From positions 4,716 to 68,715 of the forward strand of contig CAQWRG010000005.1 of assembly GCA_948909305.1 (NCBI GenBank): a DNA stretch of 64,000 nucleotides, given 5' to 3'. Position 1 is the first letter of the stretch, and every line of letters begins with the position of its first letter. A model generated the notes under the pieces. It saw only the letters and a program-made list of their open reading frames with translations. It did not search any database and had not been told where the DNA came from. This stretch comes from an uncultured Lachnospiraceae bacterium (lineage in GTDB: Bacteria > Bacillota > Clostridia > Lachnospirales > Lachnospiraceae). Shown piece after piece: positions 6,145-40,663 of this stretch. A program made the translations under genes and the position numbers.

Positions 6145-6191
6145 AATTCTCCCCTCTGTACTTCTTATATTTGTTAAAAATATCTAGTTAT

Positions 6192-6220: not shown

Positions 6221-6345
6221 GTTAAACAATAAGTTGTAATGGAAATCCATTTCTTTTACAGCCGCTTTGGCGGAGCATGGATTTACAGGGTTATTTCCAT
6301 ATAAAAAGGGCGGGAAGGATTTTTAGAATAGGTAATTCCTGACTG

Positions 6346-6375
6346 TTTACAAGAGAGCGGATCGTGTGTTACAAT
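6346..6375 (+). promoter_or_regulatory. Putative sigma-A promoter for the plus-strand MCP (TTTACA-18-TACAAT with extended TG)
   Basis: TTTACAagagagcggatcgtgTGtTACAAT lies about 45 nt upstream of the RBS GGAGGGG of the 6424 gene. Confidence 0.4.
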
Positions 6376-6423
6376 AAGAAACAATCTCAATCACGGAAAT
6401 AGGAAAGCAGGAGGGGCAGTTGG

Positions 6424-22149: not shown

Positions 22150-22566
22150 GTGAGGCTTATGGTAGGAAATGTAGGTCAGATTGTTGAGTCGATGAATGCG
22201 GCGAATAATGCGCGATCGGGGCAAAATACAGCGAATGCGGCGTCGCCGGATTTTAAGGATTATCTGGAAACGGCTCTGTTAAGTTCAAGAAACGGTCTGT
22301 TTTCCAGCGGATTGGGAGGCGGTTATTCGTACTTAAATCCGTTATCCGGCTCCGTCTGGCAGATAGCAATGTTAGAAGCTCTGCGGGACGAACTGAAAAA
22401 GGGACGTAAGTCAGAGGAGAAGGAAGGCGAAACCTTGAAGGAAGACGTTTCTTCTTCCCAGACGGAACAGACGAAAAAGGAAGACTGGGTCAGTATCCGC
22501 GTGATTCGGCGGTATCAGTCTCCACATAAGGAAGAAAGCGGCGGAAACGTCCGTGTTTTGGTTTAA
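22150..22566 (+). CDS. Hypothetical protein
   Basis: Tightly follows the previous gene (stop and start adjacent). No recognisable domain. Confidence 0.4.
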   Translation: MRLMVGNVGQIVESMNAANNARSGQNTANAASPDFKDYLETALLSSRNGLFSSGLGGGYSYLNPLSGSVWQIAMLEALRDELKKGRKSEEKEGETLKEDVSSSQTEQTKKEDWVSIRVIRRYQSPHKEESGGNVRVLV

Positions 22567-22603
22567 ATAATTTCATATGCGGTTCAAGTATCGGTAAAAA
22601 AGG

Positions 22604-22645
22604 GACAGACTATCATTGTAAATCAAGATAGTCTGTTTTTTGTTG
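22604..22645 (+). terminator. Intrinsic terminator
   Basis: ACAGACTATC and GATAGTCTGT form a 10-bp stem with a 12-nt loop, followed by TTTTTTGTTG. Confidence 0.65.
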
Positions 22646-22695
22646 TGTAAATTCTTCCATAATAATTTGTATCACAAAAAACAAAGGAGGAGAAT

Positions 22696-23313
22696 ATGGG
22701 AAACATATACGGATATGCACGTGTCAGTACGAGAGAGCAAAACGAGGACAGGCAGTTAATCGCATTACAGGAAGTTAGGGTGCCAAAACAAAATATTTAT
22801 TTGGATAAGCAGTCGGGCAGGGACTTCAACCGTCCGATGTATCTGCGCTTATTAAAAAAACTAAAAAGGGAGGATCTTCTTTATATACAGAGCATAGATC
22901 GCCTTGGAAGGAATTATGATGAAATTTTAGAGCAATGGAGAATCTTAACGAAAGAGAGAAAAGTGGATATTTCAGTGCTGGACATGCCCCTGCTGGATAC
23001 GAGGAGGGGGAAAGATTTAATGGGAACGTTTTTGAGTGACATTGTGCTTCAGGTATTGTCTTTTGTGGCGGAAAATGAGAGGAAATCAATCCGGCAGAGA
23101 CAGAGAGAAGGAATAGAAGCGGCCAAACTGCGCGGCGTGCAGTTTGGCAGGCCGAAACTGCCGATGCCGGAAAATTTTTTGGAAGCTTATGCAAGGTGGG
23201 TTTCAAAAGAAGTGTCGGGGGCAAAAGCGGCGGAACAATGCCATATGACAATGTCGACTTTTTACAGATGGGCGAATCAAAGAAAAGAGCAGGAAAGCAG
23301 GGAAGAAAAATAA
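22696..23313 (+). CDS. Small serine recombinase (resolvase/invertase family, Hin/Gin-like) with a C-terminal HTH
   Basis: N-terminal catalytic motif YGYARVSTREQNEDRQ (Ser nucleophile) and C-terminal HTH MTMSTFYRWANQ. An IR-flanked invertible segment starts 11 nt downstream. Confidence 0.85.
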   Translation: MGNIYGYARVSTREQNEDRQLIALQEVRVPKQNIYLDKQSGRDFNRPMYLRLLKKLKREDLLYIQSIDRLGRNYDEILEQWRILTKERKVDISVLDMPLLDTRRGKDLMGTFLSDIVLQVLSFVAENERKSIRQRQREGIEAAKLRGVQFGRPKLPMPENFLEAYARWVSKEVSGAKAAEQCHMTMSTFYRWANQRKEQESREEK

Positions 23314-23323
23314 AATAGATTTC

Positions 23324-23348
23324 CAGAAAGTGTACCTTTTGCAAAAAT
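23324..23348. repeat. Left inverted repeat of the invertible segment (core AAAGTGTACCTTTTG)
   Basis: Positions 23327-23341 are the perfect reverse complement of 23450-23464. Flanking bases extend the match imperfectly to about 21-25 bp. Confidence 0.75.
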
Positions 23349-23443
23349 CTGTAACATACATACTTTTAATTATTTTAATATAAAATCGACAAAAAGGCAA
23401 TAGAATTGACATTATTTTTGGGATTTGGAGCGTGGAGAGCTGG
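23349..23443. promoter_or_regulatory. Invertible DNA segment (inverton) carrying a promoter currently pointing leftward (OFF for the downstream operon)
   Basis: The segment between the inverted repeats contains, on the minus strand, TTGCCT (23395-23400) - 17 nt - TAAAAT (23372-23377). Inversion would aim it at the 23601 operon. Confidence 0.6.
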
Positions 23444-23468
23444 TTTTCAAAAGGTACACTTTTTGAAA
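23444..23468. repeat. Right inverted repeat of the invertible segment
   Basis: CAAAAGGTACACTTT (23448-23462) is the reverse complement of the left core. Confidence 0.75.
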
Positions 23469-23600
23469 AATGAAGTGAGTAAATTAGAAAAAATAGTCCA
23501 TTTAGAGTTGCAAAATAGATGAAAGAGAGGAGGAGTAACGGAAGCGGTTCTTATGATGCAACAGATTATATCAAATAAAAATGTTTAAGGAGAGGATACA

Positions 23601-24056
23601 ATGGCAAAGGAAATTAAATCGTTTAAAGTACATCCTGATTATGAAGAAGCGGAAATAAATTTTCGAAGAAAAGTGGGGTGGGAATTTATAAGCACACAAG
23701 AAATTTATAACAAAGACACCCATATGGAAGGAGGTATTTTCACTGATACTGTAACGAGTGTAACTGAGACAACGCATTTTGTAAAACTTACATTCCAGAG
23801 GGAGACGGAAAATGTAAACCCAGAGTTAATATCTTTGGAAAGGCAGATAGATAATATGCGTCCTCCAGAGGAACCACATACTTGGGGAACCATGGCTTTG
23901 ATTGTAGGGTTTATGCTCTATGTGCTTCCGGGAATATTTATGATGTCATCTAATAAAAAGAAGAAGCAGGAATATGAGCGCGTTTATTCTGAATATCAAA
24001 ATGAGTTCAGGCGGCTGCTTGCCCGTGTAGATGAACTTCAAATGGTGAAATCTTAA
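23601..24056 (+). CDS. Hypothetical membrane protein, first gene downstream of the inverton
   Basis: RBS AAGGAGAGG. One TM segment (WGTMALIVGFMLYVLPGIFMM). No known domain. Confidence 0.5.
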   Translation: MAKEIKSFKVHPDYEEAEINFRRKVGWEFISTQEIYNKDTHMEGGIFTDTVTSVTETTHFVKLTFQRETENVNPELISLERQIDNMRPPEEPHTWGTMALIVGFMLYVLPGIFMMSSNKKKKQEYERVYSEYQNEFRRLLARVDELQMVKS

Positions 24057-24076
24057 AGAAAGATAAGGAGAGCGCA

Positions 24077-24955
24077 ATGGAAAACAAAAAATATGCCCAG
24101 ATTCAGTATGATCCGGAAGATTTGCATAATGCCGCAGTCAAAGAAGTGACAGATCAGGGGGCAGAGGAATCTTTACTTGTCAACGAACTGGCGGAACAAG
24201 TTAAAGAGATGGCGCAAAGCGTGGAAATTCATTCAGAAAAAGAGGAAAAGAAAGCCCCTGATGTAATGGACGTGTTTGCGGGGGAAGCTGTGGCAGTGGA
24301 AGAATTTCCGGCAGAAATGGAGACGGAACTAGAAAAAGAGACGGAAGCAGAAAAGAAGACGGCGCCAGAAAAGGAGATGGAACTGGAAAAAGAGCGCGTT
24401 TCCGGTGAAAAAGAGCCGACGCAGGAAAGCGTTTTATATGAAGAATCGGATATTAAGAATATAAAAGAGGATATTGCATGTATTTATGGCGTAATGCGTC
24501 GTTTGGAGAAAAAATTTGAAGCGGAGATACTGGATTCGCAGAATAAGGCGGAAGCGGTCAAGAGTATCTATAAAGAGCTCAATGAGTATAAAGCGGGCCT
24601 TGTAGAAAAGGCGTTAAAAAATGTCCTTTATGACATCATTGACATGCGTGAAATGATGTTTTCTAAAGTGAAATTTGTCCGGGAGAAAGAAGGAAAAGAT
24701 ATGATTCCGCTAGAGGAGTTTGAATCTTATGCGGACGATATTGGAGATATTTTAGAAAAGCATGAGGTAACGATTTATAAAGGTGAGACGGGGGTGGAAA
24801 ATACAGCAGTCAGACAGAAGATTGTCCGAAAAGTAGAGACTGCCGACGCATCAATGGTAAAAAAAGTAGCGGAAAGCTTGAGTTATGGATATGAGTACAA
24901 TGGTAAAATCATTTACCCAGAAAAAATTAGTATTTATGTAAAAAGTAAAGAGTAA
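24077..24955 (+). CDS. GrpE-like nucleotide-exchange-factor homolog (acidic coiled-coil N-terminus, GrpE-type C-terminal domain)
   Basis: The C-terminus (..LEKHEVTIYKGETGVENTAVRQKIVRKVETADASMVKKVAESLSYGYEYNGKIIYPEKISIYVK) follows the GrpE pattern L.K.GVe.i...G..FDP..H.A.......g.V.ev.qkGY.l.drvlRPA.V.V.K. The N-terminus is Glu-rich. Confidence 0.55.
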   Translation: MENKKYAQIQYDPEDLHNAAVKEVTDQGAEESLLVNELAEQVKEMAQSVEIHSEKEEKKAPDVMDVFAGEAVAVEEFPAEMETELEKETEAEKKTAPEKEMELEKERVSGEKEPTQESVLYEESDIKNIKEDIACIYGVMRRLEKKFEAEILDSQNKAEAVKSIYKELNEYKAGLVEKALKNVLYDIIDMREMMFSKVKFVREKEGKDMIPLEEFESYADDIGDILEKHEVTIYKGETGVENTAVRQKIVRKVETADASMVKKVAESLSYGYEYNGKIIYPEKISIYVKSKE

Positions 24956-24969
24956 AAGAGGTAGATATT

Positions 24970-26718
24970 ATGGAAAATAAAGCATTTGGCATTGACCTTG
25001 GAACGACCTATTCTTGTATTAGTTATGTAGATGATATTTCAGGAGAGCCGGTTGTAGTAGATAACAGTGAAGGGACTAATGTAACGCCGTCCATTGTGTG
25101 TTTTGAAGATGAGGACACTATTGTTGTCGGCAACGTTGCAAAAGAAACGGCAGTGGTATCGCCGGAAGCCACCTGTGAATTTGTGAAGCGCAGAATGGGG
25201 GTGGATAAGGTAGCGATTACATATAATGGAACAGATTATTCCCCAGAGCAGATTTCTTCTTTGATTTTAAAAAAACTGGTGAAAGATGCGGAAGAAGCCC
25301 TAGATACAAAAATCAAGGATGTTGTAATCACCTGTCCCGCTTATTTTGGGATTGCAGAGAAAACAGCGACGGAAAATGCCGGGAAAATGGCAGGTTTAAA
25401 TGTGCTTGAAATTATCAATGAGCCGACGGCGGCCGCGCTTTGTTATGGAAGCCTCCGCGACGTAGAAGACAAAACGATACTAGTCTATGACTTGGGCGGC
25501 GGCACGTTTGATGTAACGATTATCCGCGTTACTCCGGAAGAAATTGTCGCAATCGCAACGGACGGCGACCATCAGTTGGGCGGAAAAGACTGGGACACGG
25601 CAGTGATGAACTGTGTGGAGGAAGTATTTCGTGACCAAAAATCGTTTGACGATGAATTTGATTTAGAAGCCCAGCAGGATTTGCGTCTGCGGGCGGAAAA
25701 AGCAAAACAGCAGCTTACAGGGAGGCCGAAAACAAAAGTAATCGTACAGGCTTCCGGCGCAAAGGCAAATATAGAATTTACAAGAGATGAGTTTGATGAA
25801 ATCACAAGCGCGCTCCTTAGCCAGACATTAGATAAAACAAAAGCTGCGATTGAAGCGGCTGAAAAAAAAGGCGTGACAAAAATAGATGAAATTATTTTAG
25901 TGGGCGGTTCCTGTAAAATGCCTCAGGTACGCGCGGCAGTGGAAGGCGCTTATCCTGATATTCCGGTTAAGATGTTCGAGCCGAATACGGCAGTTGCAAA
26001 AGGCGCTGCGCTTCATGCGGAGGCATTGTCTAAAGGACACGTCGAGTTACAAAAATGGCGGGATGAACTAAAAGAAGCGGTGGAAAACCTGAATAAAGAC
26101 AGGGCGCAGGAAGATAAAATTGATATTGACACACTGACGGAGGATACGATTTCCAAGGAGGACATGGAAGCGATCAAGAAAGAAGTGGAAAAGAACGGCG
26201 GCGATGCGCAGAAGGTGAAATTTGCCATTGGCGGGAAAGCCAGAGAAGGCGGCAAACAAGGCCCCGTGTTAAGAAATATCACATCGAAAAGTTTTGGCGT
26301 CCAGATCGTAAGAGATGAAATGGTAGACGGTAAAATGGAAATGGTGTATAAGATTGCGAATTTAATCCAAAAACAGGATGCTGTGCCTGTAACAGTGACA
26401 CAGGAATTTGGAACGGCATATGCCAATATGGAAAATGCGGAAATCGTTGTGTTTGAAACAGAGGTGACGGAAGAAGTCTATGACGTAGGATCGAATAGGG
26501 CTTTGGGCGCAGCAGTTTTAAATCTTCCGCCCAATTTGCCGGAAGGGGCGCCAATTCAGATTACATTCAGTTTGTCGACCGACGGCCTGTTAAGTATGAA
26601 AGGCGTGGATATGACTTCTAATCAGGAAGTGAAAACGATCTTAAAGACGGGTAGTATTTTGACAGAGGAAGACGTGGCGGCGCAGACGCAGGCGTTAAAG
26701 GGAATCCGCCTGAATTAA
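24970..26718 (+). CDS. Non-canonical Hsp70-family ATPase (DnaK-like nucleotide-binding domain, divergent C-terminal region)
   Basis: Hsp70 signatures IDLGTTYSCI, ITCPAYFGIAEKTATENAGKMAGLNVLEIINEPTAAALCYG and VYDLGGGTFDVTII. The C-terminal ~200 aa is unlike the canonical substrate-binding domain and lacks an EEVD tail. Confidence 0.85.
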   Translation: MENKAFGIDLGTTYSCISYVDDISGEPVVVDNSEGTNVTPSIVCFEDEDTIVVGNVAKETAVVSPEATCEFVKRRMGVDKVAITYNGTDYSPEQISSLILKKLVKDAEEALDTKIKDVVITCPAYFGIAEKTATENAGKMAGLNVLEIINEPTAAALCYGSLRDVEDKTILVYDLGGGTFDVTIIRVTPEEIVAIATDGDHQLGGKDWDTAVMNCVEEVFRDQKSFDDEFDLEAQQDLRLRAEKAKQQLTGRPKTKVIVQASGAKANIEFTRDEFDEITSALLSQTLDKTKAAIEAAEKKGVTKIDEIILVGGSCKMPQVRAAVEGAYPDIPVKMFEPNTAVAKGAALHAEALSKGHVELQKWRDELKEAVENLNKDRAQEDKIDIDTLTEDTISKEDMEAIKKEVEKNGGDAQKVKFAIGGKAREGGKQGPVLRNITSKSFGVQIVRDEMVDGKMEMVYKIANLIQKQDAVPVTVTQEFGTAYANMENAEIVVFETEVTEEVYDVGSNRALGAAVLNLPPNLPEGAPIQITFSLSTDGLLSMKGVDMTSNQEVKTILKTGSILTEEDVAAQTQALKGIRLN

Positions 26719-26743
26719 ATTAAAACAATGTGGGGGAAATGAA

Positions 26744-28840
26744 ATGAGAGTAGGAATAGATCTTGGAACAACATACTGCGCAATCGCTTATATTGACCCT
26801 AAAACGGGGAAGGCGAAAGTGATTCAGAACAGCGAAGGAAAATCCATCACGCCTTCCGTACTCTATTTTGATCCAAATGGGTCAGTTTTGCATGGAGAAG
26901 AAGCGAAAGCCTATGTGGAAGAAGGGTCTGACCGCACAGCGAATTATTTTAAATATTATATGGGTGACGAAACGTATGCGATCTGCCAGAATGGCAGAGA
27001 TTATACAGCGGTTGATCTTTCGGCTGAACTTTTAAAGGGCATTGTAAAAGAGGCGGAACAGGAAACGGGAGAACATATAGGGGAAGCGGTGATAACAGTT
27101 CCGGCGTATTTTAACCACCTTCAGCGTCAGGCGACGATGCGCGCGGGGCAGAACGCAGGCCTTACTGTTTTAAATATCATTAGTGAGCCGACAGCGGCCG
27201 TGTTCGCTTATGGGATACACGGTTCAGGGATAAACCAGACGGTTTTAGTCTATGACTTGGGCGGCGGCACATTTGACGTGACAATCGCCCGTATTACAGA
27301 CGATAGGATCGATGTGTTAGGTACGGACGGGGATCATAGGCTTGGCGGGAAAAACTGGGACGACGCTCTTTCAAATTACCTCGCAGATTGTTTTTATGAT
27401 GAATTTGGCATAGACGTTGGCAAAGATACAGAAAGAAATATTATGCTTCAGGCAATTTCCGAAAATACAAAAAAACAGCTTACGGAAAAGAAAAGCGCTA
27501 AAGCAGTGATTTACTGTAAGGGATGTAGAGGCGCGTATGAAATTACAGACGAGATTTTTGCAGAGATTACGTCCTATAATTTAAACCGGACAAAAGACAT
27601 TATACAAAAACTCTTTGATGAGCTTCAAATAGGCTGGGAGCAGATTGACGGCGTACTGCTTGTGGGCGGCTCTACACGCATGAAGCAGGTGAAAACATAT
27701 CTAACGGATATGTGTGGAAAACCTCCAATGAACGGCGTTAATGTAGATGAAGCTGTCGCGCTTGGAGCCGCAATCCGCGCTAATATTGACCGCAATGGCT
27801 TGGCGGCGCCGGTTGAATCAGGCAGTTTGTTTTCGATTGGCGGTTCTGTCTCAAAACCGCAGTTTTCCATTGCTGGAGCGAAGAAAATAAGCGATGCCAC
27901 GGCGCACAGCATGGGAATGATTGCTGTCAGCCAAGACGGGGAACGGTTTGTCAACAGCATAATGATAAAAAAGAATTCCAAGATTCCGTCGGAAGTTACA
28001 AAGTCATATGAGCTTGGCGTTTCTAAGAAACAGGAAAACCGTTTGGAGGTATACATGCTTCAGGGAGAGGAGGAAACGCTTGTATGGCCGCTAAATTGTA
28101 CAGTTCTTGGAAAGTATGTTTTTACAGGCATACAGGCAGGCGGGCAGAGAAAAGAAACGATCGATGTAACTTTTTATTATGATGAAAATAATATAGTCAA
28201 TGTCACGGCAAGGCAAAAAAGGACGGGGAGCCTTTTGGATTTGAAGATTGAACAGGCAGAAGATGACATGGACTGGGTTGTGGGAAACCCAAAAAACAGG
28301 GAAGGAACTTCTATGCCGCCCGAGCTGGCAGTTCTTTTAGCGGTCGATTTATCTGGGAGCATGGAAGGCGAAGGGATTACGGAAGCAAGAAAGGCGGCAG
28401 TCAGCTTTGTCAGGCAATTTGATATGGAGTATACAAAAATTGGGATTATCAATTTTGCAAACCAGTCGATTTTATATCAGCCATTGACTGATGACAGAAA
28501 CAGGCTGATTGTAAAAATCCAAGATTGGGAGATTAATGGAGACAATATTGGATATGGGACAAGCGCGGAACCCTTCACGCTTGCGTATGAAGTGCTAAAT
28601 TCCTATGAAACGGATATGAAATACGTCATTGTTTTAACGGACGGGTTTTGGAAATTTCAGGATCTTGCGATAGCGGCTGCGAAAAAATGTCATAAAAATA
28701 ATATGGAAGTGATTGCGCTTGGATTTGCGGATGCAAATACAGAATTTTTGGATGCAATCGCTTCCAGAAAAGATTTTTCAGCGTTTACAGATCTTTCTGA
28801 ATTAGAGACAACGCTGACCGGCATTGCGAAGATGATGTAA
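26744..28840 (+). CDS. Non-canonical Hsp70-family ATPase fused to a C-terminal von Willebrand factor A (vWA) domain
   Basis: Hsp70 motifs IDLGTTYCAI, ITVPAYFNHLQRQATMRAGQNAGLTVLNIISEPTAAVFAYG and VYDLGGGTFDVTIA. The C-terminal vWA has the MIDAS LAVDLSGSM...VIVLTDGFW. Confidence 0.85.
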   Translation: MRVGIDLGTTYCAIAYIDPKTGKAKVIQNSEGKSITPSVLYFDPNGSVLHGEEAKAYVEEGSDRTANYFKYYMGDETYAICQNGRDYTAVDLSAELLKGIVKEAEQETGEHIGEAVITVPAYFNHLQRQATMRAGQNAGLTVLNIISEPTAAVFAYGIHGSGINQTVLVYDLGGGTFDVTIARITDDRIDVLGTDGDHRLGGKNWDDALSNYLADCFYDEFGIDVGKDTERNIMLQAISENTKKQLTEKKSAKAVIYCKGCRGAYEITDEIFAEITSYNLNRTKDIIQKLFDELQIGWEQIDGVLLVGGSTRMKQVKTYLTDMCGKPPMNGVNVDEAVALGAAIRANIDRNGLAAPVESGSLFSIGGSVSKPQFSIAGAKKISDATAHSMGMIAVSQDGERFVNSIMIKKNSKIPSEVTKSYELGVSKKQENRLEVYMLQGEEETLVWPLNCTVLGKYVFTGIQAGGQRKETIDVTFYYDENNIVNVTARQKRTGSLLDLKIEQAEDDMDWVVGNPKNREGTSMPPELAVLLAVDLSGSMEGEGITEARKAAVSFVRQFDMEYTKIGIINFANQSILYQPLTDDRNRLIVKIQDWEINGDNIGYGTSAEPFTLAYEVLNSYETDMKYVIVLTDGFWKFQDLAIAAAKKCHKNNMEVIALGFADANTEFLDAIASRKDFSAFTDLSELETTLTGIAKMM

Positions 28841-28858
28841 TGGTAAGAGGAGAGAGAA

Positions 28859-31800
28859 ATGGGAAGAGGAGCGGACAACTTTTATCTGATTTTAGGGCTG
28901 GATTTCTTAAAGCCGGAATCTGACCAGAAAGTCATACTAAAACGCCTTAATGAAAAACAGAAGTTTTGGGATAAAAATAGGGAGCACAGGGAAAAGGGAC
29001 CTAAATATCGGCAATATAGCCAGTGGGTGCCAATTATCGCAAGCACGATGGCAAAGGAATCCTCACGCAATGCAGAAGCGAACGACGCGAGGGCATATGT
29101 GCAGCAGCGTCTGAGTGAAAATAAAAGGCATTTAGGCGGAAAGCAGAAGATTGATTCCTCTACGGCAGAGGCGATGATGGAGCTGTGTGGGCTTAGCGTA
29201 GAATTAAAAGATTTGTTTGAAAAGCTGGCGAATGTGCAAATATCGGATGAGAACGAAGAAATAAAAAAAGAAGATCCAAATCCGAAGCCAACTGGATTTG
29301 CAAGATTTTCCAAGTTAAAAGGTTCAGAGAAATATTTGTCCGTATTGAGAAAAACAGATTTATATCATTTTTTGGCGGACAGTGAAGAACAGGCAGATCA
29401 AATCGGAATCAGAAACCTGTCCGGAAAAGATTTGCTGGAAAAACATTTAGCGCCCATTAAAAAGGCATTTGAACATGACCGTGGAAATGAGGGTACGGCA
29501 GTCAAAGAGTTAGCATCTCTTTGCGAAGATATATTTGATCCTGCCCATCCAGAAAGGAAGGAAGAATACGACCTCTATTTAATCTGGAAGCAAAAAGATG
29601 AGATCATAACGAAAATGGTGGCTTTTTCCGGTAAAAACAGAAAACTGGAGCAGGGACAGCAGGAACCTTTTGTTGATGCCCTGACCCAGATTTTGAAAGA
29701 CAGGGAATCGGCGGTAAAAGTTTTTCAGCAAATTTGCATATTTAAAGACATTTCGTTTTCTTCTGTACAGGAGAACAAAAACAGGGTGGCGTGCGGGCAC
29801 TGTTTTGCGATGGTGGACATTTCCCATGGAGAGCGTAAATGCTCAGTCTGCGGCAGTGACTTATACATCAAATGCCCGAACCCGGATTGTAAGAAAGAAG
29901 TCCTTGCATCTTCGAGAGCCTGCGGCTACTGCGGGACGGATATGAATTTAGCGCAAAAGGCGGAACAGCTTTGCAATATGGCAAAGGCGGCGATTGCCAG
30001 TATGGATATTGCAAAAGCAAGGGGCGCCCTTGTGAGGGCGGAACAGCTTTTGAAGGGATATGCTAAAACGGTAAAGTTAAGCGCTGAACTTGAGAAATTG
30101 GAACGGTCGTTTTCGAAGGAACTCGAAAATTTGGATGCATTGATTGCAAAAAAAGAATTTTATCACGCGAATGATGTATTAAAAACAATTTTGCAAAAAG
30201 CGCCGACAGCGCAGATTGCTCAGGCTGTCTTGGTGGAAAATGCAGTCAAAGAAGCGGAAAATCTTTATCAATCAGCGCTTACAAAGAAAACGGAAGGTGA
30301 ATTGATTCAGATATGTTCCCAGATTGTCAACTTGTGTGTGGATTATCCGGGAGTAGAGGCTCTGATTTTAAAATTTCCTCCGAAACCTGTTTCTAATATT
30401 AAAATTTTGGCGGATACAGCTACATGCGTTAATACATTGACATGGGATAAAAGCCCGTCAGAAGGAGAGATTTGCTATAAAATTATCCGAAAAGAAAATA
30501 CTGCGGCCGCATCGGTTGGAGATAAAAGCGCGGAAGAAATTGGAGAGGCGGGGATTCCCCGTTTTGTAGATGAACATGTAAGAGCCGGAGTGGATTATTA
30601 TTACAGTATTTATACAATCCGCGCAGGAGCCGCATCGGAGCCTGCGTTTGCCCATGCAGTAAATTTGGCGGAAGCGAATTTAATCCGGACGGAAGAAGGA
30701 GATGGTTATGTCAGGGCGGAATGGAAACCGTTAGGAGGACATGCCGCCGCGGAAGTCTGGCGGATAGAAGGCGAGACGCCGCCGTGTCGCGGTGAAGGCG
30801 AAAGAATTACATCGGGCAGTAATTATTTTATGGACGACGCCGTAGAAAATGACCGCGCATACAGTTATCTTATTACGGTGAAATACCAGACTGGTGGAAA
30901 AAGCGTTTTTACGAATGGGGTTTCCATTACGCTGTTCCCATCTTCTGTCCCAGAGCCGGTAGAAGATTTGACGGTTTCCAATGTGGAGGATGATATCTTT
31001 GAAGCGGTTTTTTCGTATGAAGGTGAGGAAAAAGTGTCGCTTTACTGCGCAGAGCAGAGAACCTCATTTCAGTATGGAGATATAGTCGGCATGGATAAGG
31101 TGACGGCAGCTTTAAAGCCGCTTGAGATTCTTTCATCGTCGAAAAACAGCGTAAGGTTCCGTTTAAAAGACAATAAAAAATATGTCATTGTGCCGGTAAG
31201 CATTAAACATAATACTGCGGTCATCGGGGAATGCGCCGCTGTAGCCAAAATGGAAAAAATCCAGATAAAAGGTATGGAATGGGTTAATTCCACGCTGCAT
31301 ATCCGCATGGAATGGCCAAAAGAAGCCGTTTTAGCGATTGCTCTTTATGGAACAGACAGTTATGCCAAAAATCTGGAAGACCGCGCAGGCAAAACGTCTC
31401 GGAGCGTCAGTAAAAAACAATTTGAAGCGGACGGCGCGCTTTTACTGAAAAACATAGAGAAAAAAGATTATTTTATTACGTTATTCTCCGCATGCAGAGT
31501 CAATGGGGAGCTTGTCTATTCAGATGGCGCACGGCTGACTTTTACAAATAAGGAAAAGACGGATATCCACTATACGATCAGGCGGAAAGGCTTTCTCAAC
31601 AAACAGGTAGAAATTGAATTTAAAAGCACAGTAAAAACGTTTGCCCTGCCAGAGATTGACCTGATTTCAAAACAACATGCCGTTCCGGTTTATGCAAATT
31701 CAGGAAACCTTGCGCGACACATTGCGGCTCAGGAAGTCTGTGGAAGCCACATTGAGCTGTTTGAAGCAAAATCTTTTCCCAAAGACAGTTATATCAAAGC

Positions 31801-31876
31801 GTTTTTTACAGATGAAGATATAAATGACAAATTAAGCCTGCGTCCGGCGTATGGCACGGATTTTAAAGTAAATTAA
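28859..31876 (+). CDS. Large multidomain protein with an N-terminal degenerate J-like domain (HPD motif lost), two zinc ribbons, a helical region and FN3/Ig-like beta domains
   Basis: The N-terminus NFYLILGLDF..ESDQKVILKRLNEKQKFWDKN aligns to J-domain helices II/III (DYYEILGV...KAYRKLAMKYHPDKN) with HPD replaced. Zinc ribbons CGHC...CSVCG and CPNPDC...CGYCG. The C-terminal half predicts all-beta. Confidence 0.55.
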   Translation: MGRGADNFYLILGLDFLKPESDQKVILKRLNEKQKFWDKNREHREKGPKYRQYSQWVPIIASTMAKESSRNAEANDARAYVQQRLSENKRHLGGKQKIDSSTAEAMMELCGLSVELKDLFEKLANVQISDENEEIKKEDPNPKPTGFARFSKLKGSEKYLSVLRKTDLYHFLADSEEQADQIGIRNLSGKDLLEKHLAPIKKAFEHDRGNEGTAVKELASLCEDIFDPAHPERKEEYDLYLIWKQKDEIITKMVAFSGKNRKLEQGQQEPFVDALTQILKDRESAVKVFQQICIFKDISFSSVQENKNRVACGHCFAMVDISHGERKCSVCGSDLYIKCPNPDCKKEVLASSRACGYCGTDMNLAQKAEQLCNMAKAAIASMDIAKARGALVRAEQLLKGYAKTVKLSAELEKLERSFSKELENLDALIAKKEFYHANDVLKTILQKAPTAQIAQAVLVENAVKEAENLYQSALTKKTEGELIQICSQIVNLCVDYPGVEALILKFPPKPVSNIKILADTATCVNTLTWDKSPSEGEICYKIIRKENTAAASVGDKSAEEIGEAGIPRFVDEHVRAGVDYYYSIYTIRAGAASEPAFAHAVNLAEANLIRTEEGDGYVRAEWKPLGGHAAAEVWRIEGETPPCRGEGERITSGSNYFMDDAVENDRAYSYLITVKYQTGGKSVFTNGVSITLFPSSVPEPVEDLTVSNVEDDIFEAVFSYEGEEKVSLYCAEQRTSFQYGDIVGMDKVTAALKPLEILSSSKNSVRFRLKDNKKYVIVPVSIKHNTAVIGECAAVAKMEKIQIKGMEWVNSTLHIRMEWPKEAVLAIALYGTDSYAKNLEDRAGKTSRSVSKKQFEADGALLLKNIEKKDYFITLFSACRVNGELVYSDGARLTFTNKEKTDIHYTIRRKGFLNKQVEIEFKSTVKTFALPEIDLISKQHAVPVYANSGNLARHIAAQEVCGSHIELFEAKSFPKDSYIKAFFTDEDINDKLSLRPAYGTDFKVN

Positions 31877-31905
31877 AGAGGATTGCTATTTAGGAGGAAG
31901 AAGAA

Positions 31906-33144
31906 ATGGCAAAAAAATACACATGTCCCTATTGTTTTAAAGAGCATGAATTTGAAGATGTGGAATTTCGGTGTGTCAATGGGTTTTGCAGTGAGAAAAC
32001 GCAAGATGAAAAATACGCCCAGTATTTGGGGTTAAAGAAGGAATCAATGCCGCTGACAAACGCGACATTTTGCGCGAAAACGGTTTTGCCGAAATTGTTC
32101 CGCGGCCGTTATATGCCGATGTGGGAGAATTGCCCGTTTTGTGAAACAAAGACGTCAATCCGGGTTTGCCCGGACTGCCATAATGAGCTTCCGGAAGGAA
32201 TCCAAGATAATGAAGATATGATAATCGCGATTGTAGGGAGCCGTGATACGGGAAAAACGCATTTTATTTCTGTATTAATCAATGAACTGCAAAAGAGGAT
32301 ATGCCCTACGGTTTTCAATGGAATTTTTAATCCTATGAATGACGCGGTGCATAATCATTATATGGATCATTTTTACAACAGGGTTTATATACAAAAACAG
32401 TTACAGGATTTAACGGCGACAGCAAACCAGAGAGGGGAAATATCCGTAAGGAAGCCGTTAATTTATGAAATGATTATTCCGTTGGACGACAAAGGGAAGC
32501 GTGTCCGCAAGTTTACATTTGTATTTTACGATACCGCGGGTGAAGATTTAAAAAGTGAAGCGGTGATGAAGACGGTAAACCGTTATATCTGTAAAGCGGC
32601 GGGAATTATCTTTTTGCTTGACCCGCTTCAGATTATGGAGCTGCGGAACAATATGGATGAAGATGAAATCAAAACGTCTTCTTCTATTCTGGAAAATGAG
32701 ATTGTATCGCAAGAAATGGTTTTACAGAGAATTGCAAATGTAATCCGTGAGGATAAAGGAATGAAAAAATCGCAGAAAATCAATGTGCCTACAGCAATCG
32801 CGTTTTCGAAATTTGATGTGTTAAAACGTTTCTTCCCAAAAGGCAGCATAGTATTGGAGCCTTCGAGTTATCTGCGGGAAGGGCAGCTTGATAAAAGCGA
32901 ATGGTTTACTGTAAGCAATGAGATAGAAGCGATGCTCAATGAGTGGGGAGCGGGCGGATTTGCCACACAGGTAAAAATGACGTTTGACAGGTATACATAT
33001 AGCGCCGTATCGGCTTTGGGGCAGCGTCCGATATTGTCGAAATCGGGAGGGGCGAAAGAAATTGCAAGCCAGCCGATGCCGCATCGGGTAGAAGATCCGT
33101 TTTTATGGCTCTTAAAAGAAAACCGGGTTATCAAAGAAAAATAG
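31906..33144 (+). CDS. Double zinc-ribbon protein fused to a Ras-like small GTPase / P-loop domain
   Basis: Zinc ribbons CPYC...C..C and CPFC...CPDC. G1 IAIVGSRDTGKTHF, G3 FVFYDTAGED (DTAGQE-like), G4-like FSKFD. Confidence 0.55.
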   Translation: MAKKYTCPYCFKEHEFEDVEFRCVNGFCSEKTQDEKYAQYLGLKKESMPLTNATFCAKTVLPKLFRGRYMPMWENCPFCETKTSIRVCPDCHNELPEGIQDNEDMIIAIVGSRDTGKTHFISVLINELQKRICPTVFNGIFNPMNDAVHNHYMDHFYNRVYIQKQLQDLTATANQRGEISVRKPLIYEMIIPLDDKGKRVRKFTFVFYDTAGEDLKSEAVMKTVNRYICKAAGIIFLLDPLQIMELRNNMDEDEIKTSSSILENEIVSQEMVLQRIANVIREDKGMKKSQKINVPTAIAFSKFDVLKRFFPKGSIVLEPSSYLREGQLDKSEWFTVSNEIEAMLNEWGAGGFATQVKMTFDRYTYSAVSALGQRPILSKSGGAKEIASQPMPHRVEDPFLWLLKENRVIKEK

Positions 33145-33156
33145 GGAGGAAAAGAA

Positions 33157-35436
33157 ATGGGGATAAATCAGGCGCTTTTTACTTCTTCTGCCCGTGGAAT
33201 CAGTAAGGGCGGGGGATTGGGCTTACATAGTTATAACAGGACATGCAGTGACATGGAACTGAGGGAATTTGAGCAGGGGTTCTGCCACTATTCCTATCAG
33301 GGCGACAGCAGCGAAATACCGAATCTGCCCAAAAAAATGCTGTATAAGAAAATTGATGGAGATCGGTATCTATTGGCAAGCGTGACTTATTTGGGAAAGG
33401 ATTATCTCAAGGAGCAAGGGCGTATGGGAAACCTTCTTAGCCATATGTATTCTTTTGAGAGAAAAGACCTTACGAAATATCCGATGGAATTTTGCGCAAG
33501 CCCTGATTTCCGTTATGAAATGGAATCTGATGAAGTGGACGGCAGCAGGCGCGTAGAGTATCTTTCTGAAGTAAGCGGCGTTAGGACGGGGACGAAAGTC
33601 ATGCGTGAAACTGTACAGGCATTTTTAGAAGCAGAGCCTTGGAGAATTGATTTTTTCAGAAATCTTTTAGCGGCGGTTTTTCATAGGGATGCAGTCCATA
33701 AAGTAATCCTTTCCGACAGCCATGAACATATTTTGATGTGGCTTGCGGCGGTTGAATTTGCTCTGCCATTGCAGTGCGCAATAGAACTTTCTTTCTCCAG
33801 TTATGAAGAAAATCCAATGATTTCGGAGTTTGATATCCGCGGCATGGCATCTGGGCTTAGCGTGGGAAGTTGTGAAGAATACGCCGCAAGCGGGCAGTAT
33901 TATGTATTTGACGGGAATCATCAGGCTTATCCCAAATTTGATATAACGGAGGGTTATTTTCAGTATGGAATTTTATTTGGCATAGACAGTATTCAGGGGT
34001 TTTGTGATTTTATGAAATCATATGGATATTATAGCGTAGATATGGATATTTGCGCCGGATACAATCTCTACCAAATGGTACAGGGAGGAATGGATCTTCT
34101 GGGAGAAAAGGAGTTTCAGGATGCAGTTTCATTTGAAAGCAAGTATGGAGATCGCGCCACATACAGGCAGATTTTAGAAAACCAGTTTGAAAAAATAGAA
34201 GGAAATTACACACCAGATCTTTCAGTGTTAAAAAGCATTTATGTCTGGCTGATTGGGTATTTTCAGAAACCGCTTACGATAAAAGACTTGGAGTTTGCGG
34301 TCGCATACGCTGTTCGGCTGGAGCGGTATGGAAAGGACAATACTAAACTTGTAAATGCAAGAAAGCAGATGTGGGAATTTATCTATGAAACGATGGTGCA
34401 GAGCAAACAGAAAACGGCGCTTGCTTTTTTGCTTGAGAAGTTAAAAGAGGCGGGATTGTATGAACATATTGGAGAGTTTAGCCGTTATCTGATCCAGTTT
34501 GCAAACGAAGATACGGCTGCAAAAAGGCTTGGCCGTCTGTTCACTATGCTGTGGGAGGCTGTGCCGCAGACAGAATACCGGTATTTCGATGCGGTTGTTG
34601 AGACAGAAGCGGACCGGCTTGCCGCATATGATGGAAAAGAGCAGTACAGGGAAGCGCTGCTTGCTTTTTTGAAAGTTCAGGAACTGGGATATGGGCAGGT
34701 GCATGGGAAGGGAATGGAAAAGCTGATAGCCTTTCTATCGTGCGGAACAAATTTCGAAGATTTAAAACCCAGAAAACAGGGGCTGATTCATAGAAAAAAA
34801 GAAAACCGTGACGAGCTGGAACAGCTTCAGGCAAAAGCCGCATTTGAAGCGTTTAATTATGCGCAGAAGCATAACAAAAATATATCTATTGCAAACATCA
34901 GGCTTTTGCATTTAGGCAAGTGCATCCAAAATGCGTTTGAATTGGAAAAACCGCTGGAAAAGGTTAAAACGCTCCGGATTTATTCGGATTATCCGGTGGA
35001 TATGGAACGGATTTCGCATGATGAATTTGAGTTTTATTTGGATATTCTGTGTGAGACGATTTTTACAATGCAGTTAGATAAGTCGGATTATATGCAGCTT
35101 TTGACGTATTGGATTTTGGAAAAACGGCAGAAAAGCATATTAATGCAAAAATTTTTGTCCGGTGAAATGAACAGCGTAAAAAAGGATAGTGAAGCAGGCG
35201 GGCTTATAAGTCTTCTGTCAGCGCTTAAGAATCTGAATGATGAGGAATATACAGAAGCGTTTCAAAAGAATCTCTTTTTGCTTAAGGAATCACAGCGCGT
35301 TAGGGCGGCGGATTTAATGAAAAAAGAGTATGGAGCGGACAATGAAGGCTATCGGTTTTGGCGGCAGTTAATACGCGGAGAAAAACCGACTGAAAAAAGT
35401 CTGACAAAGAAATTTCCGAAATTTGGGAAAAGGTAA
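33157..35436 (+). CDS. Hypothetical 759-aa protein, predicted cytoplasmic and alpha-rich
   Basis: A 12-nt gap with an RBS couples it to the GTPase gene. No recognisable motif. Confidence 0.5.
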   Translation: MGINQALFTSSARGISKGGGLGLHSYNRTCSDMELREFEQGFCHYSYQGDSSEIPNLPKKMLYKKIDGDRYLLASVTYLGKDYLKEQGRMGNLLSHMYSFERKDLTKYPMEFCASPDFRYEMESDEVDGSRRVEYLSEVSGVRTGTKVMRETVQAFLEAEPWRIDFFRNLLAAVFHRDAVHKVILSDSHEHILMWLAAVEFALPLQCAIELSFSSYEENPMISEFDIRGMASGLSVGSCEEYAASGQYYVFDGNHQAYPKFDITEGYFQYGILFGIDSIQGFCDFMKSYGYYSVDMDICAGYNLYQMVQGGMDLLGEKEFQDAVSFESKYGDRATYRQILENQFEKIEGNYTPDLSVLKSIYVWLIGYFQKPLTIKDLEFAVAYAVRLERYGKDNTKLVNARKQMWEFIYETMVQSKQKTALAFLLEKLKEAGLYEHIGEFSRYLIQFANEDTAAKRLGRLFTMLWEAVPQTEYRYFDAVVETEADRLAAYDGKEQYREALLAFLKVQELGYGQVHGKGMEKLIAFLSCGTNFEDLKPRKQGLIHRKKENRDELEQLQAKAAFEAFNYAQKHNKNISIANIRLLHLGKCIQNAFELEKPLEKVKTLRIYSDYPVDMERISHDEFEFYLDILCETIFTMQLDKSDYMQLLTYWILEKRQKSILMQKFLSGEMNSVKKDSEAGGLISLLSALKNLNDEEYTEAFQKNLFLLKESQRVRAADLMKKEYGADNEGYRFWRQLIRGEKPTEKSLTKKFPKFGKR

Positions 35437-35451
35437 GGCGGAGATATAAAT

Positions 35452-36495
35452 ATGGCGTTTAAAAGAGCGAATCGGGAGATTGTTCAAAACATAAAAAAGG
35501 GATATTACTACCGGAAAATGCCGCCTGCGCTTCAAAAAGGCTATGAAATTGCGGCAGAGGGGATTCTTTCTTTTCAGAAAAAAGTAAAGATAGCGGATTG
35601 CTCTGGCAAGGAAGAAATGGAGCGGATTATCCGCGCTGTCCTTATGGAACATCCTCAGTTTTTTTATTTGAATGCAAAAGATATTGGCGTTGTAAATGCG
35701 GGGGAGTCATTTTCGTTTTCCTTTCATTATTTGTATGACAAAAAAGAAGCCATTCAGCTATTGCAGCAGATAGACAATCGGGCAGACTATATTTTGTCAG
35801 AAATCATTACGGACGGCATGACGGATTATGATAAATGCGTGGCAATTCATGATTATGTTACAAATCATATCCGTTACAATTTTTCTGCGGCGGCAGTTTC
35901 CTATATTTACGATGCATTTACGATAGAAGGCCCTATCCTAAAAAATCAGGCGGTTTGCGAAGGGATTGCAAAGACCATCGCTTATTTACTGGACAAGCTT
36001 TCTGTCAATCATTTAATTGTGGCAGGTTTTAGTGACATTGATGGGGTTCATGCGCCGCACGCATGGAATATGGTGGAGTTAGAAGGAAGTTATTATCATA
36101 TCGATGCGACATGGGATTTACAGGAAATCAATCATTTTACGAACTGCTCTCATATGTATGTAAATTTAGACGATGACTCCATGCTTGAAAACCATGATTG
36201 GGAATTGGGGGACTATCCGTCTTGTGATAAACGGGCAGAGAACTATTATGTAAAAGAAGGGCGTTTTTTCCGGTCAATGCGAAGCTTTGAATTGTATGCG
36301 CAGAAATTTTTACAGGAGGGGCAGTCTTTTATGGACGCCAGGTTTGAAGATGTATTGGATTTGCCTGATGAGAATGGGAATTATTTGGCGGAAATAATTC
36401 AGAAAAGCGCTGTGTATGCCGGGAAAAGATGTCAGGTATCTTTTGTCTTCCATCCATGCAATTATGTGTTTCAGGCGAATGTGATGTATGGATAA
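35452..36495 (+). CDS. Transglutaminase-like superfamily cysteine protease/transglutaminase
   Basis: Cys-His-Asp core AVCEGIAKTIAYLL ... HAWNMVEL ... YHIDATWD. Confidence 0.75.
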   Translation: MAFKRANREIVQNIKKGYYYRKMPPALQKGYEIAAEGILSFQKKVKIADCSGKEEMERIIRAVLMEHPQFFYLNAKDIGVVNAGESFSFSFHYLYDKKEAIQLLQQIDNRADYILSEIITDGMTDYDKCVAIHDYVTNHIRYNFSAAAVSYIYDAFTIEGPILKNQAVCEGIAKTIAYLLDKLSVNHLIVAGFSDIDGVHAPHAWNMVELEGSYYHIDATWDLQEINHFTNCSHMYVNLDDDSMLENHDWELGDYPSCDKRAENYYVKEGRFFRSMRSFELYAQKFLQEGQSFMDARFEDVLDLPDENGNYLAEIIQKSAVYAGKRCQVSFVFHPCNYVFQANVMYG

Positions 36496-36519
36496 TTAGG
36501 AAATAGGAAGAAGGACGAG

Positions 36520-37296
36520 ATGAAATTTTCAAATTATAGAAAACAAGATGTATATAAGATGCTGTTAAAGGCGGCAGTGGCATTCGTGATTCTGATTGTG
36601 GCTTTGTTTACAGTTTACAGGATTGCAAAGCCAAAAGTGGATATGTGGCTTTTAGAGAGGAAAGAGGCTAAAGAAAAAAGAGAAGCGGAAGAAAAAAAGG
36701 AAGCGGAAGAAAAAGCGGAAAGGGAATCCGAAGAACAAAGAATGCAGGAACTTGCGGAAGAATCGGATCGGATAAGCGACGGGCAGGAACAGAAAGATTC
36801 TGAATATGAGGAAGAATCAGAAACGGAAGAACCGGAAACGGAAGAATCGTCTATTCATCGGTATGAGTATGTAGTGGAAGATTGTACATGGCAGGAAGCG
36901 TTTGAAACATGCAAGTCAAAAGGGGGCTGTCTTGTCAATATCGACGACGAAGCGGAGTTTGCCTATATTACAGCGGAAATTGAAAAAAACGGTATGAAAG
37001 AGATCTTGTTTTATTTGGGAGCATCACAGGATTCGGAACAAAATTACCGTTGGCGGTCGGCAGAAGGCGCGTTTAGCGGGGGTATCCTAAATGGAGTGGG
37101 ACATTCTTGGCACAGCAGATATTGGATGCAGGGAGAACCCAGTTATTATGACGGAGAAATAGAAGAAAATGTACTGGCTATGCAGTTTTTTGAAAAAGAA
37201 GCGAGATGGGTATTCAATGATGTGCCGGGGGATATTGTGGGAAATTTTTCATATCTCAGTGGAAAAATAGGCTATATCTGTGAATACAGTGAGTAG
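36520..37296 (+). CDS. Type-II membrane protein with an extracellular C-type-lectin-like domain (CTLD), paralog 1
   Basis: Conserved N-terminus MKFSNYRKQD..KMLL, one TM, a Glu/Lys-rich stalk, then the CTLD (CTWQEAFETCKSKGGCLVNID...WRSAEG...WMQGEPS...WVFNDVPGD...YICEY). Confidence 0.7.
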   Translation: MKFSNYRKQDVYKMLLKAAVAFVILIVALFTVYRIAKPKVDMWLLERKEAKEKREAEEKKEAEEKAERESEEQRMQELAEESDRISDGQEQKDSEYEEESETEEPETEESSIHRYEYVVEDCTWQEAFETCKSKGGCLVNIDDEAEFAYITAEIEKNGMKEILFYLGASQDSEQNYRWRSAEGAFSGGILNGVGHSWHSRYWMQGEPSYYDGEIEENVLAMQFFEKEARWVFNDVPGDIVGNFSYLSGKIGYICEYSE

Positions 37297-37326
37297 GCAG
37301 GGAAATTTATCGGGAGAAGATAAGGT

Positions 37327-38589: not shown

Positions 38590-38603
38590 ACGGTGGAGAA
38601 AAA

Positions 38604-38873
38604 ATGACGATTTCAAATTTTAGGGGAAAAGATAAAAAAAGGATGCTGCTGATTGCCGGGAGTTTAGCGGGAATTGGATTGATTCTGGCATTGGCGGCAA
38701 TCATCGCAGGAGTACGGTTTTTGGGGCCGGTTGTGTTGGATACAGTGGACTGGATTGTTCAGAATGAAAATGAAGTGAAGGGCTGCCTATTGGTTTTCGT
38801 TGGTATCCCTTGCTTTATAATTATAATGTTTCGGAAAAGAAAACGTGAAAAAGAAAGGAAAAAACAAAAGTAA
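38604..38873 (+). CDS. Anchor-only paralog of the CTLD membrane-protein family (89 aa: N-terminal motif plus TM, no lectin domain)
   Basis: MTISNFRGKDKKRMLL plus a TM helix, then a short basic tail. It looks like a truncated copy immediately upstream of a full-length paralog. Confidence 0.4.
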   Translation: MTISNFRGKDKKRMLLIAGSLAGIGLILALAAIIAGVRFLGPVVLDTVDWIVQNENEVKGCLLVFVGIPCFIIIMFRKRKREKERKKQK

Positions 38874-38922
38874 AAAATATGGAACGTTGTATATTGTTTG
38901 GAAAAAATGGTGGAAAAGAAAA

Positions 38923-39975: not shown

Positions 39976-40004
39976 GCAGGCTTGAAAGAAAGGGGAGAGA
40001 TCAA

Positions 40005-40595: not shown

Positions 40596-40663
40596 AAGAG
40601 AAAATTTTTTATTTGCCAATGACAGAAATGATAGGAATGACAGAAAATAGATGAGGTGAAAGT

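Follow-up and report, generated by a model that had tools for sequence, protein, structure and literature searches.

A putative promoter inverton between a Sin-like serine recombinase gene and a predicted GAP1-N2/HSP70 conflict operon in a Lachnospiraceae bacterium

In a 64,000-nucleotide stretch of DNA from an uncultured Lachnospiraceae bacterium (contig CAQWRG010000005.1 of assembly GCA_948909305.1, hereafter the window), a short segment flanked by inverted repeats (IRs) separates a small serine recombinase gene from a long co-directional operon, and the best explanation of it, which we consider quite probable, is an invertible promoter (inverton) that switches the operon on and off. According to this explanation, recombinase dimers would bind two 26-bp sites, each composed of 12-bp half-sites around a central GT, and the sites would synapse across a 124-bp loop, equivalent to 12 helical turns. 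Cuts at the central dinucleotides, followed by strand rotation and religation, would reverse the segment 23333-23456. In the sequenced orientation a sigma-A promoter would be aimed at the 3' end of the recombinase gene, and the operon would be OFF or only leaky because the promoter faces away from it and no promoter-like site was found in the 131-nt leader. After inversion, transcription would start approximately 177 nt 5' of the ATG at 23601 and the operon would be ON in a subpopulation of cells. An original prediction from the window sequence had proposed an IR-bounded invertible promoter with an adjacent recombinase, and this proposal is supported by the recurrence of the module in relatives, by relatives in which the segment is flipped, by the register of the promoter and by the co-directional cargo.

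Sites, promoter and recombinase of the segment

The two arms of the IR identified by a repeat search (Table 1) are 26 nt long, lie 98 nt apart and are complementary at 23 of 26 positions (88%). They share a perfect 15-nt core, AAAGTGTACCTTTTG, at 23327-23341 on the plus strand and at 23448-23462 on the minus strand. The core and its reverse-complement copy had been predicted, and they are present and unique in the 64 kb, with the right-hand copy 2 nt away from the position expected for it (23450-23464) and with 106 bp, rather than about 108 bp, bracketed by the cores. An imperfect extension to 21-25 bp had also been claimed; extended arms do exist, and their full measured length is the 26 nt given above. 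When as many as 2 mismatches were allowed, the core had just two matches in the window as compared to a chance expectation of 0.13, and none of 100 shuffles gave at least two matches.

Each arm is in itself a palindrome of the 12-2-12 type, an arrangement that characterises the crossover sites of dimeric serine recombinases. The arm centres (GT on the left and AC on the right) are non-palindromic and lie in inverted orientation between the two sites, as required for inversion. Both arms retain all invariant positions of the family consensus described below, namely A8, A9, G11, T12 and the central GT. Across 13 haplotypes, a single variable site was observed in the 52 nt of the arms, with none in the distal arm, versus seven in the 98 nt of the interior.

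For the promoter, the minus-strand TTGCCT-17-TAAAAT element named in the original prediction is present, and in a promoter-oriented alignment it is in register with the promoter of relatives (TTGCCTTTTTGTCGATTTTATATTAAAAT in the window versus TTGATTTTTTGACGATAATATAATAGAAT in the related locus L007), examples of the aligned family promoters being TTGATT-17-TAGAAT in L007 and TTGAAA-17-TATAAT in locus L071. It would be the main promoter of the operon, and the earlier view that the sequenced orientation is probably OFF gains support from this homology. The accompanying claim that it is the only good sigma-A promoter of the segment did not hold, as the plus-strand element TCGACA-18-TG-n-CATTAT scores equally; the latter may provide leaky expression in the OFF state.

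The open reading frame (ORF) next to the segment encodes a small serine recombinase, as had been proposed, with a PF00239 match of 95.7 bits. Its translation contains the motifs GYARVSTREQ, with the catalytic Ser11, and SIDRLGRNY, with DRLGR, both of which align to Sin. Among solved structures, the nearest is the Sin/Bin3 recombinase of Tn552 (2r0q; E = 7.6e-30, 107 bits, residues 4-191), followed by the Tn3 and gamma-delta resolvases (70 bits for Tn3), while the structures of Gin (4m6f and 3uj3) scored 53-55 bits (~1e-13). The label "Hin-like" that was first given to the enzyme is therefore appropriate for the site architecture and the class of mechanism, but not for the subfamily, since Sin (107 bits) outscores Gin (55 bits). 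The match to the NCBIfam model of Mpi (NF009949) was 47.8 bits against a cutoff of 272, and no NCBIfam equivalog was reached by the recombinase. The full-length alignment with Sin runs to residue 191 of 205, and no Pfam helix-turn-helix (HTH) model scored. Within the species, 19 synonymous and 3 nonsynonymous changes were counted in the 13 haplotypes, a pattern that indicates an intact gene under purifying selection.

Relatives of the module and inversion among them

The recombinase was compared to one genome per species, which yielded at least 592 loci, and the best 80 of these (67-77% identity) were kept. They belong to metagenome-assembled genomes (MAGs) and isolates of Lachnospiraceae/Oscillospiraceae type; in the protein database, more than 7,700 recombinase clusters were found at E ≤ 1e-60, and the relatives as a whole are Clostridia-type gut bacteria. 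A simple IR search identified the same module in 36 loci, including the window. When the site consensus was searched for as a pair, AAAnGTGTACnTTT together with its reverse complement (AAAnGTACACnTTT in the partner) at a distance of 105-240 bp, a site pair was located 3' of the recombinase stop codon in 45 of the 75 loci with enough downstream sequence, and within 80 nt of it in 42 of those 45. In the control, site pairs were found in 3 of 76 upstream regions of about 4 kb each. The original description of the element as a classic gut-bacterial inverton architecture agrees with a well-known kind of element and with a module that recurs in dozens of species.

The regularities of the family concern the sites, their position and their spacing. 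The site consensus is TTaCAgAAAgGT-GT-ACcTTTcTGtAA, with the central GT invariant in 35 of the 36 modules, and the centre of the left site lies 19-32 nt past the recombinase stop codon in 33 of them (56 nt in L007 and 75 nt in L022 being other values). Centre-to-centre distances fall into four classes of 113-117, 124-128, 134-139 and 145-147 bp, and the 124 bp of the window belongs to the 12-turn class. The distances have a periodicity of about 10.8 bp (Rayleigh R = 0.65 for 28 distinct elements), and none of 20,000 random sets was as periodic, even though independence is somewhat overstated by this statistic because the elements are related by descent. Such helical phasing is expected if the two sites must face each other and synapse across a very small loop. 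The interiors of the segments are mostly unalignable between relatives, so that segment length has changed in evolution and the helical phase has not. No extra conserved motif or accessory site was recognised in the aligned, poorly conserved interiors.

The segments of relatives contain a strong sigma-A promoter (TTGAAA/TGGAAA-17-[TG]TATAAT and variants) at offset 54-88 that exits via one arm. In the 36 modules, including the window, this promoter faces the cargo in 10 cases and the recombinase in 26. In most of the loci with a module, the distal arm is followed within about 450 nt by the start of a plus-strand gene, and the proteins encoded there include surface proteins with SLH/vWA, BspA-LRR, InlB-repeat and vWA domains, Eco57I/MmeI-type methylases, a PLD-SNF2 helicase and SPFH-zinc-ribbon proteins, which are a classic phase-variable repertoire. 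Homology between these cargos and the operon of the window was considered and rejected by comparison.

Two independent sets of relatives with a flipped segment between collinear flanks demonstrate that the family does invert. In the first, an isolate of Ruminococcus turbiniformis (L071) and a MAG (L075) are 99.5% identical and collinear over 3.4 kb upstream and 415 bp downstream, yet a 149-nt segment between these flanks matches on the opposite strand only, and a base-level comparison found the outer half-sites unchanged. Because the outer half-sites stay fixed, the crossover must lie inside the arms, consistent with the central dinucleotide, and it is from this pair that we infer the exact crossover position in the window. 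In the second set, L024 and L027 are about 90-92% identical to L025 and collinear with it for kilobases on both sides, with the same PLD-SNF2 helicase as cargo and with a 150-nt segment inverted.

Several loci of the family deserve separate mention. In L073 (3688-3826), L079 (3652-3790) and L058 (1522-1637) the site pair was found 5' of the recombinase gene and not 3' of it, ending approximately 175 nt ahead of the start codon in L073 and L079, which suggests an alternative arrangement of the module. In L030 (4865-6217) and L032 (4816-6210) the first ORF past the switch encodes a TnpB/Cas12f-like protein (PF07282); this may reflect an insertion sequence located between switch and cargo, or TnpB may itself be under control of the switch. 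About 1 kb 3' of the recombinase-facing switch of L071 (CLA-AA-H200, NZ_JAJEQX010000031.1), the ORF at 5792-6529 encodes the 23S rRNA methyltransferase Erm(B) (565 bits, NCBIfam cutoff 525). In L075, the flipped and nearly identical switch is followed by the 415 bp of shared sequence and then by an ORF that by eye resembles alanyl-tRNA synthetase.

Orientation of this copy and alternative explanations

For the copy in the window, switching is a property that we extrapolate from the family, and there are several points that weigh against an active promoter inverton. The arms mismatch at 3 of 26 positions, and the promoter (9/12, without TG) is weaker than most family promoters. The equally scoring plus-strand site already faces the operon in the sequenced orientation, and the OFF/ON assignment of the window promoter is one that is supported by homology. 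In addition, all 27 assemblies of this element, namely the window and 26 others, have the sequenced orientation. The 26 further assemblies, a minority of 476 contigs, came from NCBI MAGs, ENA, JGI and Logan (separate runs) and were reached via exact matches to the recombinase protein, to the neighbouring protein and to six alleles or variants; as consensus sequences they report the majority orientation only, and a minority ON population is neither shown nor excluded by them. Finally, the predicted ON junction had no match in the JGI metagenome contigs, where just two copies of the locus exist, both of them in the sequenced orientation as found with a neutral interior pattern. The predicted junctions of the flipped segment are represented by …CCAGAAAGTGTACCTTTTGAAAACCAGCTC…, …GTTACAGATTTTTGCAAAAGGTACACTTTTTG…, …CCAGAAAGTGTACCTTTTGAAAACCAGC… and …ACAGATTTTTGCAAAAGGTACACTTTTTGAAAAATG…; in the sequence flipped in silico, there was no junction-spanning ORF long or plausible enough to serve as a handle for protein searches.

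The uniform orientation of this element, in a family where 10 of 36 promoters face the cargo, reflects either a genuine OFF bias or a locked switch. In the latter case the element would be the descendant of an inverton that no longer flips, and the operon would be expressed, if at all, by read-through or from the plus-strand site. A locked or decaying switch would account for the 27 concordant assemblies, for a promoter below the family norm with a competing plus-strand TCGACA-18-TGnCATTAT element, and for the three arm mismatches. However, decay is argued against by the purifying selection on an intact recombinase, by arms that are less variable than the interior, by the conservation of every invariant arm position and by a 124-bp spacing that is still in phase, and a minority orientation would be invisible in consensus assemblies. 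We therefore regard a locked switch as unlikely, albeit with a share of probability that should not be neglected.

Returning to an active inverton, this copy would be strongly biased to OFF. It is plausible, by analogy, that such a bias stems from the OFF-state promoter, which is antisense to the recombinase gene; in most family members no more than about 30 nt separate the stop codon of this gene from the switch. A precedent is known from the fim switch of Escherichia coli for orientation-dependent control of a recombinase. One candidate for a terminator of the antisense transcript, a hairpin at 23122-23148 inside the recombinase gene, was dropped as it is absent from relatives.

Between two related loci, L007 and L008, homology begins 11 nt before the start codon and is limited to the recombinase gene and the switch together with about 300 nt. 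Within the species of the window, four Logan contigs (L091, L095, L096 and L098) contain the same recombinase allele and switch with a different downstream cargo, and between L091 and L092 the homology stops 2 nt past the distal arm, the first cargo proteins being unrelated. The alternative cargo encodes a 139-aa protein and then a protein with a weak M26-peptidase-N-like region; the possibility that it is a diverged allele of the window genes was rejected, as there is no significant protein similarity. In L091, 14 nt of the outer flank of the arm (TGAAAAATGAAGTG) are repeated approximately 165 nt beyond the end of homology. From the breakpoints in these two pairs of loci it follows that the distal site is the boundary of a unit, with either the module moving or the cargo being replaced.

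A bolder proposal is that the recombinase and its 150-bp switch constitute an autonomous, portable phase-variation cassette that has spread in gut Clostridia, its cargo being gained or swapped at the distal crossover site by the invertase itself. As a corollary, inversion would proceed across 11-14 helical turns without a Fis-type enhancer and would be OFF-biased by the promoter antisense to the recombinase gene. The minimal shared sequence, the varied cargos and the presence of two unrelated cargos on one module within a species would fit this proposal, which is nevertheless quite doubtful and is put forward as speculation.

It could also be supposed that the palindromic 26-bp boxes are operators to which a protein binds, perhaps the recombinase in the role of a mere repressor, and that they regulate the recombinase gene or the operon with no rearrangement of DNA involved. 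Each arm alone is a 12-2-12 palindrome typical of dimeric HTH sites, and no inversion was seen in the assemblies of this species. Nevertheless, the homologous box pairs of relatives bound an inverted segment, the catalytic Ser and the DRLGR motif are kept, and the non-palindromic GT/AC centres are inverted in 35 of 36 modules, a feature that matters for the directionality of recombination and not for repression. Operators of this kind are consequently very improbable.

A similarly small chance is given to a transposon or plasmid resolvase with res-like sites, or to the terminal repeats of a small element, unrelated to the expression of the operon. In its favour, Sin/Bin3 of Tn552, the nearest enzyme of known structure, is a resolvase, the module occurs in unrelated contexts (L007 and L008) and the cargo differs between strains from the distal arm onward. 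Against it, genes for a transposase or for replication are missing from the neighbourhood, the sites are inverted rather than direct and lie 3' of the gene, a conserved outward promoter is located between them and the rearrangement seen in relatives is an inversion. The reading as a miniature inverted-repeat transposable element or other terminal repeats was rejected on the same grounds.

Gene context and comparison with known systems

The features of the locus are compiled in Table 1. The cargo had been described as a 13-kb operon; a co-directional operon does start at 23601, but 13 kb is its minimum extent and its length is uncertain, as tightly spaced co-directional genes run on to about 42 kb (42030) without a convincing terminator, the last interval encoding a Ser/Thr kinase (41137-42030).

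Table 1. Coordinates of the predicted switch and of the features around it in the window
Feature	Position	Strand	Description
Hairpin (10-bp stem, 12-nt loop) and T-run	22605..22641	+	Repeat search and sequence reading
Small serine recombinase, 205 aa	22696..23313	+	PF00239, 95.7 bits, residues 4-148; extended left arm begins 6 nt past stop codon
Proximal (left) recombination site	23320..23345		TTTCCAGAAAGT-GT-ACCTTTTGCAAA; predicted crossover dinucleotide GT 23332-23333; fits family consensus
Interior of the putative invertible segment	23346..23443		98 bp between arms, 124 bp between crossover centres
Switch promoter TTGCCT-17-TAAAAT	23372..23400 (23400->23372)	-	Promoter scan; faces recombinase 3' end
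Second promoter-like site TCGACA-18-TG-n-CATTAT	23386..23415	+	Equal score in simple scan; operon-facing; not conserved in relatives
Distal (right) recombination site	23444..23469		TTTTCAAAAGGT-AC-ACTTTTTGAAAA; predicted crossover dinucleotide AC 23456-23457
Leader, 131 nt	23470..23600	+	No promoter-like site (scan), no Rfam match; ends in ribosome-binding site of first cargo gene
Cargo, nine tightly spaced genes	23601..37296	+	Pfam, NCBIfam, gene spacing
Cargo genes in order, 1-5			151-aa unknown; 292-aa unknown; HSP70-like, 582 aa; HSP70-vWA, 698 aa; zinc-ribbon, 1005 aa
Cargo genes in order, 6-9			DO-GTPase-like, 412 aa; GAP1-N2/GAP1-M, 759 aa; transglutaminase-like, 347 aa; transmembrane/lectin-like, 258 aa

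The cargo is predicted, from the domains that it encodes, to be a conflict system of the GAP1-N2/DO-GTPase/HSP70 kind, with the HSP70 theme. The 759-aa protein matches GAP1-N2 (PF20013, 40.2 bits) and GAP1-M (PF20014, 27.3 bits), the cutoff being 24 bits for both, and the gene directly 5' of it encodes the 412-aa protein with matches to DO-GTPase2 (21.8 bits) and DO-GTPase1 (17.5 bits) that are both below the cutoff of 27. The two proteins with an HSP70 nucleotide-binding domain scored 324 and 334 bits, and one of them is fused to a vWA domain. No match to GrpE, FNIII, DnaJ or TPR was obtained for the operon proteins with Pfam and NCBIfam, and PADLOC assigned neither the operon proteins nor the recombinase to a defence system.

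C-type-lectin-domain proteins are unusual in bacteria. Downstream of the GAP1 gene they are encoded at 36520-37296 (a weak match), 38845-39975 and 44775-45821 (with YARHG), and throughout 36520-45821 their genes are interleaved with those for a GH3 hydrolase, a cytidylyltransferase-like protein, a Ser/Thr kinase and a radical-SAM protein; the lectin genes may belong to the same switch-controlled transcription unit. Within this region, a second IR (40601-40628 and 41091-41118; 28 nt, 86% complementary, 462 nt apart) brackets an ORF for a 136-aa membrane protein (40664-41074) with no Pfam match. The region of its left arm contains the direct repeat AATGACAGAAA in two copies, there is no adjoining recombinase, and the IR may mark two operators, a short mobile element or a further invertible unit. 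Further downstream, an 18-nt IR (43628-43645 and 43750-43767; 89% complementary, 104 nt apart) lies within the ORF 43345-44118 and may be due to chance or may delimit an intragenic invertible segment. In the leader of the operon, sequence reading noted a possible 11-codon ORF, ATGATGCAACAGATTATATCAAATAAAAATGTTTAA, at 23552-23587, directly 5' of the ribosome-binding site of the first cargo gene.

On the other side of the switch, the recombinase gene is preceded by genes encoding a LytTR response regulator, a GHKL histidine kinase and two proteins of unknown function; domain annotation of the neighbours revealed no transposase or replication genes. The hairpin at 22605-22641 is likely the terminator of this LytTR/histidine-kinase block, and the recombinase gene would therefore be transcribed from a separate promoter located in 22640-22690. 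When 22500-24000 was compared to Rfam, the sole match was a spurious one to a miRNA model 5' of the recombinase gene; riboswitch and leader families gave none. Two assemblies of the same locus with an identical switch, L087 (GCA_948739425.1) and L088 (ERZ28664733), have fragmented or altered gene calls: the histidine kinase gene and the 292-aa gene are split, and the recombinase appears as variants of 181 and 207 aa (83-88% identity). These differences are probably due to frameshifts in the assemblies and not to true alleles.

Other gut bacteria are known to possess phase-variable systems for defence and restriction-modification. If it is true that a GAP1-N2/HSP70 system is phase-variable and OFF in nearly all cells, this would be consistent with a costly or toxic immunity function, and a rare ON subpopulation is what a costly conflict system would predict. 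GAP1-N2 GTPase-centric conflict systems, including an HSP70 theme, were computationally predicted by Kaur, Burroughs, Iyer and Aravind in 2020 (PMC7159879), in a paper that makes no mention of inversion ("invert" occurs 0 times). Their HSP70 theme comprises an HSP70 and a second, ATPase-only HSP70 protein, together with GrpE and an FNIII-repeat protein fused to DnaJ/TPR. The cargo described here resembles this theme in the GAP1-N2/GAP1-M protein following a putative GTPase, in the two HSP70s (one of them vWA-fused) and in its Firmicute host, and it differs in that no GrpE or FNIII/DnaJ component was detected and the GTPase matches are sub-threshold.

In terms of mechanism, the locus is predicted to be a case of Hin/Mpi-type promoter inversion by a serine recombinase, with the recombinase gene outside the segment as in Mpi and Fim. 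As in Hin/hix of Salmonella, and in Gin/gix, Cin and Pin, a small serine recombinase is combined with inverted 26-bp sites made of A-tract 12-bp half-sites and a 2-bp non-palindromic core. The Hin segment carries an outward promoter. In contrast to Hin, the enzyme described here is nearer to Sin than to Gin, its gene lies outside the segment and the segment measures about 124 bp from centre to centre rather than about 1 kb. Hin-type enzymes depend on a Fis-bound enhancer, and Fis is not known from Firmicutes.

A serine recombinase of about 200 aa encoded outside short invertible promoters is also the arrangement of Mpi and the capsular-polysaccharide invertons of Bacteroides fragilis, where operons for surface structures are turned on or off as Mpi inverts their promoters (Coyne et al. 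2003, cited in PMC11602134). The two systems differ in that the recombinase of the window falls short of the Mpi model (47.8 versus 272 bits), in the IR consensus and in the host phylum. In addition, Mpi is one global enzyme that serves many sites, whereas in the present family each switch has a recombinase of its own, whose gene lies 19-32 nt away in most loci.

By sequence, the closest characterised relatives of the enzyme are Sin (Tn552/pI9789) and beta (pSM19035), with the Sin structure 2r0q at E = 7.6e-30. These act as resolvases on res sites with accessory subsites, whereas two simple inverted sites flank a promoter in the window. The beta recombinase catalyses inversion as well as resolution, helped by an HU-like protein, and this analogy suggests how a 124-bp loop could be bent.

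The fimS switch of E. coli with FimB and FimE, and invertons of the PhaseFinder type, likewise combine a short invertible promoter with an adjacent outside recombinase and with ON/OFF control of an operon. The concept of the inverton and the cargo classes found here match surveys of gut bacteria (PMC11892184, PMC11602134). These surveys mainly report motifs from Bacteroidota (PMC11892184), although the hCom2 inverton survey also described novel IR groups in Firmicutes_A, of which group 139 (230-257 bp) is linked to a tyrosine recombinase (PMC11892184). The IR motif of the window had no match in the supplements of PMC11892184 that were examined, and the literature searched, apart from the original PhaseFinder paper, was found to describe neither this family of serine recombinases nor its motif, so that prior cataloguing is possible. 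Fim and most catalogued invertons of Clostridia and Bacteroides use tyrosine recombinases, in contrast to the serine recombinase of this family.

Promoter invertons are a well-known device of bet-hedging, and the mechanism proposed for the window is an ordinary one; it is the regularities of the family and the cargo that are of note. Read-based tools have charted such switches mostly in Bacteroidota, and the traits of this very large and coherent family (its recombinase resembles Sin, its 12-2-12 sites are centred on GTGTAC and its helically phased segments measure about 115-147 bp) may provide a simple sequence rule for annotating hundreds of switches. The small, phased loop would also be an attractive minimal substrate for the study of serine-recombinase inversion without a Fis-type enhancer.

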